Assembly: GCA_964416505.1 (NCBI GenBank)
Contig: CAYQEJ010000002.1
Span: 968 to 64,967 of the forward strand
Length of the DNA: 64,000 nucleotides
Reading direction: 5' to 3'
Source: an uncultured Gammaproteobacteria bacterium
Lineage (GTDB): Bacteria; Patescibacteriota; Microgenomatia; Levybacterales; UBA12049
Part shown: positions 6,895-16,526 of the stretch, piece after piece
Position numbering within the stretch: the first letter of the stretch is position 1
Layout of the letters: the number at the start of each line of letters is the position of its first letter
Program-made: the position numbers and the translations under genes
The notes under the pieces: model-generated
What the model was told of the DNA's origin: nothing
Database searches by the model: none
Seen by the model: the letters and a program-made list of their open reading frames with translations, nothing else

Positions 6895-6938
6895 TTTTCT
6901 TATTGACTGATTAAGTAATAATTGGTAATATTTTATTT

Positions 6939-7056
6939 ATGCAAAAAATTAAAAATCTTATTCTCGTCATTCTTAACTCCTTGAAGGGAGGGAAGTCTGA
7001 CGCGTAAATAAGATAGATACGCAAAAAGACAAGCCTCCCAAACGGGAGGTTTTTTT
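6939..7056 (+). promoter_or_regulatory. leader-peptide + terminator module, copy 1 (candidate attenuator)
   Basis: A TTGACT-N17-TAATAT promoter lies at 6902-6930. A 22-codon ORF MQKIKNLILVILNSLKGGKSDA* (6939-7007) is rich in Ile/Leu/Val. An upstream GGGAGGG could pair with the CCTCCC arm of the downstream terminator GCCTCCC-AAAC-GGGAGGT-T7 (7033-7056). Confidence 0.35.
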
Positions 7057-7069
7057 GTGGTTAAAAATT

Positions 7070-7429
7070 ATGAGAGACATATACGATTCATCAATACATC
7101 ATGCAATAAAAGGTCCGGTTCCTCCTGCTCTTTGGAGAAGTTATGAAATAGGAGATAACGGCAGAGCTGAAATTTACACTCTTGGAGATACGCTTATTAC
7201 CAAAGAAACCCGATTTGTAGGCAGTGAAAGGAGACCAAGTTTTAGGTTCGAAGTAGACGGAGGTACTTTAAAGGATAAATTATCAGCTGCTAATTGGCTA
7301 GCTGAAAGTATTGCGAGAGACAAAGATAGATATAGAATTTCTCAGCCTGGAACTCAGGTTTTCCCAGATAGAGTTGTTTTCAAATCAGGAACATATTTAG
7401 AAGACACTACAGAAGGGGGAGGTGAGTAG
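7070..7429 (+). CDS. hypothetical protein
   Basis: ORF directly after the terminator. ATG at 7070 (MRDIY...). Locally elevated GC. Confidence 0.4.
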   Translation: MRDIYDSSIHHAIKGPVPPALWRSYEIGDNGRAEIYTLGDTLITKETRFVGSERRPSFRFEVDGGTLKDKLSAANWLAESIARDKDRYRISQPGTQVFPDRVVFKSGTYLEDTTEGGGE

Positions 7430-7431
7430 TT

Positions 7432-7641
7432 ATGGAAGGAAATAGAAGATTTGGACAAGACCCAGGATTTAGCGGTGGACCGGGATTCGAAAGGCCTCGG
7501 CCAAAACAACCATTTGCTGGAGATTTAACGATCGGTCCAAACGGAAGAGTAATTCAGCAAGGGCAGGAAAGAAGATCCAGTGGTCCCGTACCCGGAACGT
7601 CAGCCAGAAAACACAGAACATCTGGCCAGCGCGGCAGATAA
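7432..7641 (+). CDS. hypothetical small basic Gly/Pro/Arg-rich protein
   Basis: 69-aa ORF starting 3 nt after the previous stop. GC about 48%. Confidence 0.3.
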   Translation: MEGNRRFGQDPGFSGGPGFERPRPKQPFAGDLTIGPNGRVIQQGQERRSSGPVPGTSARKHRTSGQRGR

Positions 7642-7671
7642 ATATTTTATTAAAAAAGGAGGTGATTAATT

Positions 7672-7899
7672 ATGACACAAAGAACAGTTTTTAGTAGATT
7701 ACAAAGCGTTGCAGAACATCGCGAAGCCCAAGCATTGGGAGTGCAAAGTGCTCATTTAGGAGAAGCAGTATTGCCACCTGCAAATTACTTAAGAGGTCCT
7801 TATTTGGACCAAATAGCAAGAACACATCCCGAAAGACACGAACAAGCAACTCAATTAGTTGAAAAAGTGGTTGGTGGATCCAGGGAAAGAATGGGCTAG
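7672..7899 (+). CDS. hypothetical protein
   Basis: Consensus RBS AAAGGAGGTG, 7 nt spacer, then ATG. Confidence 0.45.
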   Translation: MTQRTVFSRLQSVAEHREAQALGVQSAHLGEAVLPPANYLRGPYLDQIARTHPERHEQATQLVEKVVGGSRERMG

Positions 7900-7934
7900 A
7901 AAAAAATTTTTAAAAAGGAGGTGTATTAACATAG

Positions 7935-8198
7935 TCAAAAGAATTTTTAGATCCAATAAATCAACTTAATAAGGCTAGAACAAATGAGGAGATTAGAGAT
8001 GCTCTCGGTGCAATAAAAGAAGGCAGAAATTCTCTTTATAACCTAGTAGATATTTCCTATGAAATTTTACTAGAGCAGGAACAAATTGAAGTTGAGGTTC
8101 CAGCATATGGAACTCATCCACAGAGAAAAAGATACGCAAGTGGTTTTCCTAAAGGTGAATGGAATCATAATTTTGGAGTAGATAAAGCCAAAGAATAA
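7935..8198 (+). CDS. 88-codon ORF lacking a canonical start (possible frameshifted gene or pseudogene)
   Basis: Consensus RBS GGAGGTG (7917-7923) has the same spacing as the upstream gene but points at ATAG (7931-7934). The coding-like open frame SKEFLDPINQLNKARTNEEIRDALGAIKEGRNS...GVDKAKE* begins right after that TAG. Deleting one base would give ATG TCA. Confidence 0.3.
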   Translation, partial: SKEFLDPINQLNKARTNEEIRDALGAIKEGRNSLYNLVDISYEILLEQEQIEVEVPAYGTHPQRKRYASGFPKGEWNHNFGVDKAKE

Positions 8199-8205
8199 TA
8201 GTTTG

Positions 8206-8279
8206 TGGGCCCGACAAGAGTCGAACTTGTGACCTTTACAATGTCAATGTAACGCTCTAACCAACTGAGCTACGAGCCC
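8206..8279 (-). tRNA. tRNA-Val (anticodon GAC)
   Basis: Reverse complement GGGCTCGTAGCTCAGTTGGTTAGAGCGTTACATTGACATTGTAAAGGTCACAAGTTCGACTCTTGTCGGGCCCA forms a cloverleaf with anticodon loop TTGACAT. Confidence 0.85.
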
Positions 8280-8372
8280 GATGCGCTTATTTTAACAGAA
8301 TGGTATCCTAGGTTCAATTATATATCCTAGAGTATTTGACCTGAAGCTAAAACTAAGCTATAATTCTGCGCT

Positions 8373-9530
8373 ATGACAAGAGATTCTGAAAGACAGATGG
8401 GAATGTATGGTCAGGCGCCATCGGAAATTGGCGCAGTAAGAATCCGTTTTGGAACTGGATTATCAGCTCCAGTTGTTAGAGATGCAGAAATCTATATAAG
8501 AGAATTGGTGGCTGGACAAGCTACACCCGAGCAAAGACCAGATTCTCTTAATACACCAGAAGCAGAAGCTTTCCTAACAGAAGGAAGACCTGAATTTGGT
8601 GGCAGAAGTATTTTTGCAACACTACGGCACATTGTGGGAGAGGAACTTAAAAGAGGCACTTTCACACCAGGCGCAGCAGTTCCTCCTCTAGAGCTTGTGC
8701 AGACCATTTCTCGAAAAAAAGAAGGAAGAAAATCACCTGACGACACATGGGTAGGTAGAAATCATTTTTACGGAATTGGCGTACCCAGGCAAGTACTTAA
8801 TCAAATACTTTCAGAAGTACCCACTCAGCCAAGACAAAAAGGATCAGAAATACTTACTACTTATGATAGGCAAGCAGTGGAGGAACGCTTACAAAAATAC
8901 TTTGCCCAAACACCAAGAGTAAACTCTAGAACAGGACTTTTTGAAGATGAAAGCGGAGTTTGGGTCACGCGTGCGTATTTAACAGCTAGATATGGAATTT
9001 CACATTTTCTTCTAAACACTTACCTTACAGATGTCTTAACCAGACCAGGACTAAACAAAGGAAAAGACGCAACGCTTTATAATTTAAGTCAGGCAAAAGA
9101 AAATCTTAAAGGATTAATTCAAACTCCATCAGAGACAGGCGGAAGAGGAAGCCATGTTGAAAAAGGCGTAGATTGGATAAATGCAGAAGAAATCGCAAGA
9201 AGACTTCATCTTTCTCCCTCAACAGTAAAAGCTGCACTTACTGACGAAAGGTTCAAAACCGTTAGAGGAAAGAATGGAAAAGATTCAAAATGTTATGACT
9301 TTGGTAGAGCCAAGAAATTACTGGAACCTTTAACTTCTCTTCCGGTGGCAAATCCTACAAGTAACGGCAGGATGGTTACTGGAAGCTTTTTAGCAGAAAG
9401 ATACCCTTTAAGCATACCTACAATTGCAAATAGATTAAAAACTATTGGCGTAAGAGGCAGAGGAATTGGCGGAAGACACGCAATCCTTTATCCGCTCCAT
9501 GAAGCAGAAAAAATTCTTGCAGAAAAATAA
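8373..9530 (+). CDS. hypothetical protein with three tandem ~50-aa HTH-like repeats
   Basis: Promoter TTGACC-N17-TATAAT ends 8 nt before the ATG. C-terminal half holds three collinear modules (VWVTRAYLTARYGISHF..., DWINAEEIARRLHLSPSTVKAAL..., RMVTGSFLAERYPLSIPTIANRL...) resembling DNA-binding HTH units. Elevated GC. Confidence 0.5.
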   Translation: MTRDSERQMGMYGQAPSEIGAVRIRFGTGLSAPVVRDAEIYIRELVAGQATPEQRPDSLNTPEAEAFLTEGRPEFGGRSIFATLRHIVGEELKRGTFTPGAAVPPLELVQTISRKKEGRKSPDDTWVGRNHFYGIGVPRQVLNQILSEVPTQPRQKGSEILTTYDRQAVEERLQKYFAQTPRVNSRTGLFEDESGVWVTRAYLTARYGISHFLLNTYLTDVLTRPGLNKGKDATLYNLSQAKENLKGLIQTPSETGGRGSHVEKGVDWINAEEIARRLHLSPSTVKAALTDERFKTVRGKNGKDSKCYDFGRAKKLLEPLTSLPVANPTSNGRMVTGSFLAERYPLSIPTIANRLKTIGVRGRGIGGRHAILYPLHEAEKILAEK

Positions 9531-9548: not shown

Positions 9549-10121
9549 ATGACTAGACAGGAAGCCTGGGAAGAATTAAATAAAAATATTAAAAATCCAA
9601 ATCTAATTAAGCATCATCTCGCATGTGAGGCAATAATGATCTCACTTTGCAAAAAATTAGTTCCGAATGCTGATGAGATTACCATAGGTAAATGGGGACT
9701 GACTGGACTTCTACATGATGTAGATTACGAACTCACCCGTGAGACACCGGAAAAACATGGAATTGTTTCATCAGAAATACTTAAAGATAACATAGACAGC
9801 GATATAATCTATGCAATTCGAGCACATAATTACACTAGAAACGGTGCGGAAGCTCCCAAATCCTTCATGGACTGGAGTATGTATACATGTGACGAATTAT
9901 CAGGTCTTATAATTGCAGCAACTCTAATTCATCCAGATAAAAAATTAGCTTCTATCGACGTCCCATTTATTTTAAAAAGATTTAACGAACCTAGTTTTGC
10001 AAAAGGAGCAGATAGAAACCAAATCAAGATGTGTGAATCAGAGCTTAAAATTCCTCTTGCGGAATTTGTACAAATTGCGCTTTCTGCAATGCAAAAAATT
10101 TCTACCGATTTAAATCTTTGA
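9549..10121 (+). CDS. HD-domain phosphohydrolase-family protein
   Basis: H..H (HHLACEA) and HD (LLHDVD) metal-binding motifs of the HD superfamily. Confidence 0.6.
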   Translation: MTRQEAWEELNKNIKNPNLIKHHLACEAIMISLCKKLVPNADEITIGKWGLTGLLHDVDYELTRETPEKHGIVSSEILKDNIDSDIIYAIRAHNYTRNGAEAPKSFMDWSMYTCDELSGLIIAATLIHPDKKLASIDVPFILKRFNEPSFAKGADRNQIKMCESELKIPLAEFVQIALSAMQKISTDLNL

Positions 10122-14400: not shown

Positions 14401-14513
14401 ATGTTTTTTATGATTAAAGGTTTGAATTTTGGTTTTTACTTTACACACCCTACGGGGAGGTAACGTATTGCCAAAATAAAAGGCAATAAGCCTCCCAAAC
14501 GGGAGGTTTTTTT
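14401..14513 (+). promoter_or_regulatory. Phe-rich leader peptide + rho-independent terminator (candidate pheA attenuator), module copy 2
   Basis: Leader ORF atg ttt ttt atg att aaa ggt ttg aat ttt ggt ttt tac ttt aca cac cct acg ggg agg taa (MFFMIKGLNFGFYFTHPTGR*, 5 Phe). GGGGAGG just before the stop can pair with the CCTCCC arm of terminator GCCTCCC-AAAC-GGGAGG-T7 (14490-14513). A hairpin TTGCC-aaaataaaa-GGCAA lies between. The terminator segment is identical to the 7033-7056 copy. Confidence 0.45.
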
Positions 14514-14521
14514 GTGTTTAT

Positions 14522-15727: not shown

Positions 15728-15740
15728 GGAGGTGATTAGT

Positions 15741-15983
15741 ATGACAGAAAGAATAGATTTAGATTATAAATCTTTACCAATAGCAGATCCGCATGCGGGT
15801 ATAGCTCCTGAGAGAAAATTAGTTGTCTTAAGTACAAATCCGTCAGCTCATGCACTCTATACAGCTGAGAGAGAAAGAGCGGAAAGAATTCGAATAAATG
15901 AGATTACAGCTAAAGTGAAGGGATGGATACGCGACCAACGCTCGATAGGCATGGGGGAACAACTTGATTTAATTGCTAAATAA
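15741..15983 (+). CDS. hypothetical protein
   Basis: Consensus RBS AAGGAGGTG then ATG 6 nt later. Elevated GC. Confidence 0.4.
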   Translation: MTERIDLDYKSLPIADPHAGIAPERKLVVLSTNPSAHALYTAERERAERIRINEITAKVKGWIRDQRSIGMGEQLDLIAK

Positions 15984-16020
15984 TTGACATTAAAAATTTC
16001 AAATGTTATCATCCCAGGCA

Positions 16021-16526
16021 TGCAAGATAGATATAGACCTGCTGCAACACCGGCAGAAATTAGAGAAGGTGCTGACCAAACAATTGCAAGACTCAGGTCA
16101 TTAACTGCGGAATATCAGTCAAAAGGAATAGCGCTTACTAGATGGCATGTAGATCCTATTGCAGGATCCCATGCAAATCTTGATGTTGCTCAGGATTTAT
16201 TGGATACGACAAATCCATTAAGACAATTAACTCGAAGAGATTTGACCCTTGATAGACTTGGAGAATATCCATCTATCAAAATCTTTCCTAGTGGGGACGG
16301 AAGTAAAATCGGCCTTATTACCCCACATTTTACATATCAATTTAGTCATCAGAGAATAGAAACAGTTTTTAATGGAGGGTTTGATGTTCCAAGAAGAGTA
16401 AGACTTTTAGAAAGATTTGGAAGACAAACTCCAGGACAATTAATTTTAAAGGCAATGGAAGAAGCCCAAGAAGAAGCAAGATATGGAAGAACAATTTTTT
16501 CTAGATTTACAGGTAGAAATAAATAA
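16021..16526 (+). CDS. hypothetical protein
   Basis: TTGACA-N17-TATCAT promoter ends 7 nt before ATG (MQDRYRP...). The TTG at 15984 belongs to the -35 hexamer and is not a start. Confidence 0.4.

Follow-up and report, generated by a model that had tools for sequence, protein, structure and literature searches.

A putative ribosome-mediated attenuator with a Leu/Ile/Val leader and the attenuator family to which it appears to belong in Microgenomates-type bacteria

The window analysed here, a stretch of 64 000 nucleotides (nt) of contig CAYQEJ010000002.1 (assembly GCA_964416505.1), contains on its + strand two short leader open reading frames (ORFs), each followed by the same hairpin-forming string, and it raises the question of what such an arrangement does at the first of these places (site 1, 6903–7059), where a promoter match, a leader ORF rich in branched-chain residues and a hairpin stand ahead of three small ORFs. 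A first-pass annotation had taken the two copies either for a modular attenuator reused with a different amino-acid bias for different cargo or for the boundary of a mobile regulatory cassette. The present analysis supports the modular attenuator: the mini-ORF and an upstream copy of the terminator arm GGGAGG are found at both copies, folding of each leader together with its terminator, as had been proposed, gives a 1:2 hairpin at both, and the codon runs of the leaders track cargo function across a whole family. Site 1 is very probably a ribosome-mediated transcription attenuator responding to the availability of charged tRNAs for Leu, Ile and Val. Judged by its sequence, it is a member of a large family in Microgenomates-type bacteria of the candidate phyla radiation (CPR), in which the switch is near-constant and the codon run varies.

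Site 1 starts with a sigma-70-type promoter match, TTGACT-N17-TAATAT (6903–6931, + strand; 9 of 12 positions matched, with a TG), which had been annotated before and was found again. Its −10 box ends 7 nt ahead of the ATG of the leader ORF (6939) and there is no Shine–Dalgarno (SD) sequence, two features that make translation of the leader ORF from a leaderless transcript probable; TTGACA or TTGACT and a gap of 6–7 nt between −10 box and start codon are kept in all five site-1 orthologues examined. The leader ORF (6939–7007, + strand, ATG to TAA) comprises 22 codons, reads MQKIKNLILVILNSLKGGKSDA and, as previously counted, contains eight Ile, Leu or Val residues among its 22; the ORF, the position of its stop and the Ile/Leu/Val run are kept in at least nine relatives. 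Codons 7–12 (6957–6974, + strand), CUU AUU CUC GUC AUU CUU (Leu Ile Leu Val Ile Leu), are the proposed stall site as read from the sequence. In the minimum-free-energy fold, these regulatory codons overlap region 1, the 5′ strand of the 1:2 hairpin (6955–6981, + strand), and region 2, its 3′ strand (6986–7014, + strand), has as its core GGGAGG (6986–6991), an exact copy of the 3′ arm of the terminator; the leader stop codon (7005–7007) falls within region 2. The G-rich tract noticed earlier, GAAGGGAGGGAAG (6983–6995), thus lies within the mini-ORF itself. When region 1 is masked, the fold contains the antiterminator (2:3; 6986–7039, + strand), in which GGGAGG 6986–6991 pairs with CCUCCC 7034–7039 and which encloses the helices GUCU 6995–6998 : AGAC 7027–7030 and GCGUA 7002–7006 : UACGC 7018–7022. 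The terminator hairpin (3:4), AAGCCUCCC-AAAC-GGGAGGUUU (7031–7052, + strand), has 9 pairs, a 4-nt loop and a U-tract and is scored as an intrinsic terminator. This tract of seven U (U7; 7050–7056, + strand) is the proposed termination point and, at the same time, the 7-nt spacer from GGGAGG to a start codon, namely a GTG directly after it (7057–7059, + strand) that opens only a 30-codon ORF in a different frame from ORF1; the frame of ORF1 is shared by the TTG at 7055. On its sequence, site 1 is of the standard 1:2 / 2:3 / 3:4 design seen in classical attenuators.

In the proposed mechanism, transcription would begin at or beside ATG 6939 and a ribosome would translate the 22-codon leader. With Leu, Ile and Val plentiful, the ribosome would reach the stop codon and cover region 2, CCUCCC 7034–7039 would pair with GGGAGG 7044–7049 and RNA polymerase would terminate in U7. 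With one of these amino acids scarce, the ribosome would stall at codons 7–12 and cover region 1; CCUCCC would then be taken up by GGGAGG 6986–6991 ahead of the synthesis of region 4, the terminator would be blocked and transcription would enter ORF1–ORF3. If the leader were not translated at all, both 1:2 and 3:4 would form, with termination as the outcome. The 3′ arm of the terminator would in addition act as a perfect SD seven U ahead of a start codon, and the hairpin would probably also block translation of any leaked transcript. Folding accords with the end states of this scheme, since the leader (6939–7060) reaches a minimum free energy of −43.5 kcal/mol (z = −5.9) in a structure made of the long 1:2 hairpin, including the Ile/Leu/Val codons, and the terminator, and the antiterminator reaches −22.4 to −22.6 kcal/mol if region 1 is masked and region 4 still missing. 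The geometry of the ribosome footprint was judged by inspection only.

The arrangement is conserved in related genomes, whose loci are designated here by L numbers. The site-1 leader occupies the same syntenic spot, between a DUF5660 gene and a block of an HD-protein gene, thrS and infC, in L037, L161, L162, L011 and L005, and on three short contigs (L039, L069 and L098) it immediately follows a gene of DUF5660 type; the leader is also present in L046, where the comparison covered the leader alone. The leader peptides are MQAIKNLILVILKSLKGGKSDA (L037 and L161), MQAVKNLILVILKSLKGGKSDA (L162), MVEKIKNLILVLINSLRGGKSDA (L011), MFRNVNLIIVLLNSREGAKFDA (L005), MNRKLNLIIVLLNSLKGGKSDA (L046), VNRNLNIILVLLNSFRGAKFLG (L039), VKRSFNLIITVLNSLTGGRSS (L069) and VRRNVLITVILNFPSGGKFLA (L098). 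The order of Leu, Ile and Val permutes among them and the composition is kept, which fits multivalent sensing better than a functional peptide. The mean column identity of the leader is 77%, whereas the neighbouring DUF5660 protein is only 31–63% identical. In an alignment of 10 orthologues, the terminated-state structure is 83% paired, versus 45–54% when the partners are slid against each other; the 1:2 helix is paired in 81% of cells and the terminator in 97%, and pair 21–78 of the 1:2 helix switches from C–G to U–A in a 4:4 split, with a covariation score above all but 1 of 500 shuffles. The loci closest to the window come from Levybacteria/Levyibacteriota genomes (Microgenomates group, Patescibacteria).

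Several of the records (L004, L005, L009, L010, L012, L015, L016, L019, L020, L025, L030–L033 and L035; guanine–cytosine (GC) content 35–46%) are titled ‘uncultured Gammaproteobacteria’. In tblastn comparisons, L005, L010 and L033 have the gene order of the window and 41–84% protein identity to it, as do Levybacteria loci, and some close relatives with this title, which are metagenome-assembled genomes, show synteny and 50–85% protein identity; the titles therefore look wrong.

The wider family was collected in two ways. Species-representative genomes searched for the 23-mer core of the terminator yielded 34 loci. In those from Levybacteria, Daviesbacteria, Roizmanbacteria and their relatives, the 23-mer stands behind a mini-ORF and GGGAGG wherever the upstream sequence is readable, with L033 as the sole exception (the match in L030 is at the locus edge, its upstream part being outside the fetched DNA); the first-pass suggestion that the string might simply be a common terminator, free of mini-ORF and G-tract, hence does not describe the CPR genomes. 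It does describe the non-CPR loci, mostly of Bacteroidota (Flavobacterium, Chitinophagaceae, Puia), where the 23-mer follows a gene as an ordinary terminator, with neither mini-ORF nor G-tract. A metagenome scan with the pattern GGGAGG, 22–52 nt, CCTCCC, 4 nt (any loop), GGGAGG, T7 retrieved at least 120 loci, and both scans together gave at least about 150 distinct leaders of the same design. Apart from the 23-mer matches, a generic hairpin scan with synteny yielded 18 attenuators that this string had not ascertained: 14 of them use CCUCCC/GGGAGG with other loops, and the remaining four use other cores (CCCGCC, CCCCGC, CCUCCG), region 2 being altered to match in each. Regions 2, 3 and 4 accordingly change together, from GGGAGG/CCUCCC in most members to GGCGGG/CCCGCC in L027 and L014, GCGGGG/CCCCGC in L003 and CGGAGG/CCUCCG in L033. 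A copy of the own 3′ arm was found upstream of 35 of 52 strict terminator hairpins in CPR-like loci, versus 2 of 96 control windows and none of 16 non-CPR hairpins. In a test independent of the search pattern, only 1 of 2000 permutations reached the observed extension of the 2:3 helix beyond its 6-bp core. Single-position covariation beside the 2:3 core is not significant alone (Fisher p = 0.16), and, owing to variable spacer lengths, the terminator is all that RNAalifold recovers from the family alignment.

Membership of site 1 was assessed with a covariance model, R1, trained on 97 metagenome members and including no window sequence and no site-1 orthologue. Over the 64 kb and both strands, R1 hits 6971–7060 at 65.8 bits (E = 3.6e-11) and 14439–14517 at 59.3 bits, the next, unrelated hit scoring 18 bits; the window thus holds exactly two family members. 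Site 1 also fits the geometry of the family, with TAATAT, 7 nt and ATG at one end and U7 followed by GTG at the other. Among family members, a −10 box 6–9 nt ahead of the leader start codon combined with the lack of an SD occurs in 20 of 35, a geometry from which leaderless translation is inferred. Among the matches listed, the U-tract is exactly 7 nt long in 109 of 122 members and an ATG or GTG follows directly in 92 of 122, the rough expectation from base composition being about 3%. By this placement of a start codon right after U7, the terminator arm GGGAGG would double as an SD at ideal spacing. In 19 of 79 members, the first cargo gene truly starts at the post-U7 codon, which opens only an ORF of 2–43 codons in the remainder. 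Translational coupling, in the sense of a post-U7 mini-ORF ending at the first real gene start, was not significant (20/44 versus 27/87 control frames, p = 0.12), and no enrichment was found for a TTG at the end of the U-tract as an in-frame cargo start (10/44 versus 10/44 in the control frame).

The leaders differ in the amino acid specified by the codon run. According to a heuristic classifier, there are at least 58 aromatic, 26 Leu, 15 mixed Ile/Leu/Val, 12 Cys, 9 Ile, 7 Met, 6 His, 4 Ser, 3 Thr and 2 Lys leaders, together with at least 8 others. The codon runs show a good match, by annotation of the cargo, with what the downstream genes encode, with some mismatches; the Pfam scan covered a subset of the cargo genes. 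Thus, an Ile leader precedes RidA and threonine dehydratase (L025), Leu/Val leaders precede a thiamine pyrophosphate enzyme of acetolactate-synthase type (L009, L018), Cys leaders precede pyridoxal-phosphate (PALP) enzymes (L021, L072, L094, L051), and aromatic leaders precede 3-deoxy-D-arabino-heptulosonate 7-phosphate synthase and dehydroquinate synthase (L010, L018) or prephenate dehydrogenase (L013). A Thr leader stands before an amino-acid kinase (L153), and aminoacyl-tRNA synthetase genes follow leaders of Met type (MetRS, L095), Lys type (LysRS, L105) and Thr-like type (ThrRS, L010); in L003, a Phe/Tyr leader is followed by two small ORFs and then a PheS-like ORF similar to the pheS of the window. 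A small ORF without a Pfam match is often the first one behind the leader, and first cargo ORFs are poor in the residues sensed, whether aromatic (0.045 versus 0.069, p = 9e-4) or Ile (0.030 versus 0.073, p = 0.008), with only a trend to depletion for Leu and mixed Ile/Leu/Val first ORFs.

The second member in the window (site 2, 14401–14516, + strand) has the identical terminator, U7 and GTG behind a Phe-type leader, MFFMIKGLNFGFYFTHPTGR (14401–14463), with its region 2 core GGGAGG at 14455–14460, and a gene for a prephenate dehydratase with ACT domain, two small ORFs and pheS–pheT lie downstream. Here, a −10 box TATTAT ends at 14402, 7 nt before ATG 14410, and the L037 orthologue starts MIKIINFGFYF, so that the site-2 start is probably ATG 14410 (MIKGLNF...); two of the Phe codons counted from a start at 14401 may then be untranslated. 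The two small ORFs before pheS (window 15732–16526), for which no Pfam families were found, are kept in L037 (11859–12366) with 59% and 42% identity. In L037, they come immediately after the Phe leader, the prephenate dehydratase gene being absent from that position; the first of the two is without any Phe.

Several points weigh against reading site 1 as a Leu/Ile/Val attenuator. Transcription start, stalling, termination and read-through are all inferred from the sequence. With region 1 masked and the terminator complete, the two alternative states of site 1 are near-tied at −23.4 versus −23.7 kcal/mol and the antiterminator is not clearly favoured; in the same equilibrium fold, the antiterminator is the minimum in only 19 of 39 members and the terminator in 20 of 39. 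The two states being near equal in energy at equilibrium, the switch must be kinetic and decided during transcription; the argument for it rests on co-transcriptional order, equilibrium folding being ambiguous as a test. The 2:3 core is 95% paired among the 10 orthologues but invariant and thus uninformative, and its invariance in the two collections is partly by construction, as both scans were seeded with the conserved core. Leaders and cargo are mismatched in places, an Ile leader preceding prephenate dehydratase in L027 and other leaders preceding a racemase, a methyltransferase or a hydrolase with a nucleoside hydrolase. For site 1 itself, no link to Leu/Ile/Val metabolism was recognized in ORF1–ORF3 by Pfam or homologue comparison, and the amino acids sensed are thus deduced from the leader alone.

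Four other explanations of the hairpin were weighed. It could be the plain intrinsic terminator of the upstream DUF5660 gene, with mini-ORF, promoter match and GGGAGG present by coincidence: no other terminator-like hairpin follows that gene, non-CPR loci, those of Bacteroidota among them, use the same 23-mer simply as a terminator, and promoter-like matches are no commoner than in shuffles. Coincidence would hardly preserve promoter, ORF, stop position, 1:2 helix and region 2 in nine relatives, nor place at most strict CPR terminators an upstream arm copy that is rare in control windows and changes along with variant terminators, and this explanation is very unlikely; the hairpin may also end read-through from the upstream gene, a role not exclusive with attenuation. 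Control could instead be purely translational, the hairpin only sequestering the SD-like GGGAGG before a GTG or TTG without regulated termination. GGGAGG-U7-(A/G)UG is indeed a perfect ribosome-binding site, its start codon being kept in the large majority of the members listed and serving as a real gene start in some, but a GC-rich stem of 9 bp with exactly U7 behind it constitutes a canonical intrinsic terminator, the GTG of site 1 is out of frame with ORF1, ORF2 and ORF3 have SDs of their own, and in most members the post-U7 codon opens just a minute ORF; such an explanation is quite unlikely, and SD sequestration is regarded as a second layer and not as a replacement for termination. It is extremely unlikely that the mini-ORF serves to make a small hydrophobic peptide with a function of its own (membrane peptide or type I toxin) and that the structures only stabilize the mRNA. 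In favour are the hydrophobicity of LILVIL at its core and a peptide sequence fairly well kept from one orthologue to the next; against it, runs of Cys, Met, Thr, Lys or aromatic residues that follow the cargo are found in sister elements built on this RNA platform, the order of Leu, Ile and Val permutes between orthologues, and the C-terminal half is encoded by the conserved RNA switch itself.

The boundary of a mobile regulatory cassette or repeat element bringing in a foreign ‘GC island’, the other proposal of the first-pass annotation, found no support. What speaks for it is that the cargo differs between related genomes, that the block always has a tRNA-Val gene, a typical site of integration, at its flank and that a 385-residue ORF beside it looks inserted. 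Against it stand the presence of only two copies in 64 kb, the syntenic position in relatives, the conservation of ORF1 and ORF2 behind the same leader, a third-position GC of the cargo equal to background and the fact that no mobility genes were recognized among the scanned ORFs (flanking repeats were not searched for), which together bring its probability close to nil. Attenuation at site 1 thus stays the preferred reading.

The repeat itself deserves a comment. The string shared by the two sites, previously given as 27 nt, is the same at both but is 29 nt long, AAGCCTCCCAAACGGGAGGTTTTTTTGTG, its first copy ending at 7059 and not at 7057; it is present in exactly two copies in the window (+ strand, 7031–7059 and 14488–14516), none being expected by chance (100 shuffles), and identity stops at both of its edges. 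Among the matches listed for the metagenome sample, the exact 29-mer occurs in 3 of 119 family members, two random members are identical over 29 nt with P ~0.002, and the AAAC loop is found in 30 of 122. Family constraint fixes the stem, U7 and much of the flanks but not the loop, and alone it does not explain the identity of the two window copies. In related genomes, the site-1 and site-2 terminators differ slightly from each other, although site 2 of L011 is the exact 29-mer and site 1 of L005 matches its first 26 nt, through the U7 tract; retention of the ancestral form of the clade and gene conversion are both possible origins of the identity. Both copies had also been placed at the entry to islands of elevated GC. 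The rise after site 1 is real but modest (0.39–0.43 in bins 7001–9500 versus a window mean of 0.357), and the second island begins at about 13.5 kb, some 950 nt upstream of copy 2, which is therefore not at its entry. Third-position GC of the ORFs downstream of site 1 is 0.16–0.33, the background being 0.24 ± 0.035; the GC rise therefore reflects proteins rich in Gly, Ala, Arg and Pro and poor in Ile, Lys and Asn, and the idea of foreign ‘GC islands’ was rejected.

Upstream of site 1 lie a short trigger-factor gene and then the DUF5660 gene; downstream, the order is three small ORFs, each with a strong SD, a convergent tRNA-Val(GAC) gene, the 385-residue ORF, an ORF at 9549–10121 whose homologues in relatives carry a weak HD-domain match, a threonyl-tRNA synthetase-like ORF, infC, rpmI and rplT. 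ORF1 (7070–7429, + strand, 119 residues, no Pfam family) has homologues behind the same leader in L037 and L039 (P0002, 51% identity, and P0003, 35%) and no other true homologues; its model shows four beta-strands and then a helix, with a predicted local distance difference test (pLDDT) score of 63 and no significant fold match. ORF2 (7432–7641, + strand, 69 residues), with its own SD GGAGGTGA, is basic, rich in Gly, Arg and Pro and contains only 5 Ile/Leu/Val. It is the most conserved of the site-1 cargo, with five homologues at 63–93% identity, and lies directly behind the leader in L161 and L162; there is no sequence match in the PDB and no Pfam family, and the model is essentially disordered (predicted template modelling score 0.17). 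For ORF3 (7672–7899, + strand, 75 residues, no Pfam family), whose strong SD is AAGGAGGTGA, the fetched loci contain no homologue. Overall, 41 of the 263 cargo residues are Ile, Leu or Val (15.6%), versus 25.1% in the long ORFs of the window (p = 1.3e-4), as expected of proteins made when those amino acids are scarce.

Behind ORF3, at 7915–8199, an 88-codon open frame (7935–8199) follows a strong SD, AAGGAGGTG (7915–7923), with no ATG, GTG or TTG and no homologue in the fetched loci. The sequence there reads ...TATTAAC ATAG TCA AAA..., and one A less in ATAG (7931–7934) would give SD, 7 nt and an in-frame ATG; judged by the sequence, one nucleotide seems to have been inserted, through an assembly error or in a recently formed pseudogene. 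The tRNA-Val(GAC) gene is always at the far end of the cargo block of Leu/Ile/Val-type attenuators, in seven loci with the window included. It is convergent in the window (8205–8279, − strand), L037 (6876–6950), L161 (2059–2135) and L005 (3583–3655) and co-directional in L011 (6050–6122), L014 (3412–3486) and L033 (3509–3583); in the convergent cases, read-through would run antisense into the tRNA-Val gene. The 385-residue ORF (8373–9530), between tRNA-Val and the HD-protein gene, gives weak helix-turn-helix matches and has its own near-consensus promoter, TTGACC-N17-TATAAT (8336–8364); its absence from the syntenic loci L037, L005 and L011 makes an insertion beside the tRNA gene probable.

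Two further observations concern elements elsewhere. A Trp/His-type leader (MTSIITSTWHHEAPRR..., ...NHWHLL...) precedes the same gene pair at L031 5679–7318 and L116 244–2981, a haloacid-dehalogenase-type hydrolase and an inosine-uridine nucleoside hydrolase, whose link to an amino acid is not obvious. In Actinomarina (Actinobacteria; L026 996–1018 and L029 4824–4846), the same 23-mer stands behind a Leu/Val mini-ORF, MKNIKVLVLDLVLLLK, without an upstream GGGAGG copy, and precedes an acetolactate-synthase-type gene (Pfam-confirmed in L026) and then three ORFs that resemble an ilvN-ilvC-leuA block; these elements look like an attenuator of different design ending in the same hairpin.

Multivalent attenuation by Leu, Val and Ile is known from the enterobacterial ilvGMEDA and ilvBN leaders. 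Site 1 resembles them in its short leader ORF with a mixed Leu/Ile/Val run, its 1:2, 2:3 and 3:4 hairpins and its terminator before the first structural gene, and by analogy its mechanism would be that of the enterobacterial ilv, pheA and pheST leaders. Unlike them, it shows no sequence relationship to those leaders, is apparently leaderless and without an SD, precedes small proteins and not ilv enzymes, and has the SD-like/anti-SD-like core GGGAGG/CCUCCC that is common to attenuators for many amino acids. At gathering thresholds, Rfam recognizes only four tRNAs in the window and no T-box. The best Rfam match of both copies is RF01859, the Phe_leader of gammaproteobacterial pheA/pheST, over the full model length, with 36.4 bits (6945–7059) and 36.7 bits (14406–14516); these scores being below the gathering threshold of 55, neither copy is a member by the Rfam criterion. 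As with the Escherichia coli Phe_leader, site 2 precedes a prephenate dehydratase gene and pheST, whereas site 1 carries Ile/Leu/Val codons and not Phe.

T-boxes have a conserved terminator/antiterminator platform with a swappable specificity element and place synthetase and amino-acid genes under the control of tRNA charging. The family resembles them at the system level in combining a single platform with exchangeable specificity and a cargo that includes tRNA synthetase genes, but its sensor would be a ribosome translating a mini-ORF and not direct tRNA binding; a T-box gave no match at E ≤ 10 in either leader, the sub-threshold Phe_leader being the only match. Outside the CPR, leaderless polycysteine short ORFs act as Cys-responsive attenuators in mycobacteria (bioRxiv 10.1101/834739). 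Like the site-1 family as proposed, they are reported to have a sensing ORF that opens at the 5′ end of a leaderless transcript and a codon run that sets specificity, and they differ from that family in phylum and in responding to a single amino acid. Branched-chain leader peptides outside Proteobacteria are further exemplified by the ilvBNC upstream ORF/leader attenuators of Corynebacterium (PMC10272879, PMC11857589) and the Leu-rich attenuator peptide of Staphylococcus aureus ilv (PMC5794164), which appear to be lineage-specific single elements controlling ilv biosynthesis genes, unlike site 1. No account of such attenuators in the CPR was found in Rfam 15 or in the literature searched, which is not proof of novelty.

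Leader-peptide attenuation is a textbook mechanism, and the element is not a new principle. What site 1 points to is a family that appears very common in the CPR. It is plausible, and on balance favoured, that Microgenomates-type CPR bacteria use one standardized leader-peptide attenuator platform as a general amino-acid sensor, as T-boxes are used in Firmicutes. In such a platform, a leaderless mini-ORF, a GGGAGG/CCUCCC switch, U7 and a start codon that makes the terminator arm a ribosome-binding site would be constant, and the codon run would be swapped to cover at least ten amino acids, driving aminoacyl-tRNA synthetases, the remaining biosynthetic genes and fast-evolving small proteins depleted in the amino acid sensed. 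The family would put the Met, Lys, Phe and Thr synthetases under ribosome-mediated control, and, if this is true, the platform would also be a compact and re-targetable part for synthetic biology. Its modularity provides a simple sequence rule that predicts which amino acid controls which gene in uncultivated bacteria. The small depleted proteins may be starvation-response proteins, of which ORF1 and ORF2 of site 1 would be an example, and hypothetical small genes behind such leaders gain a testable context, namely expression under starvation for a named amino acid.

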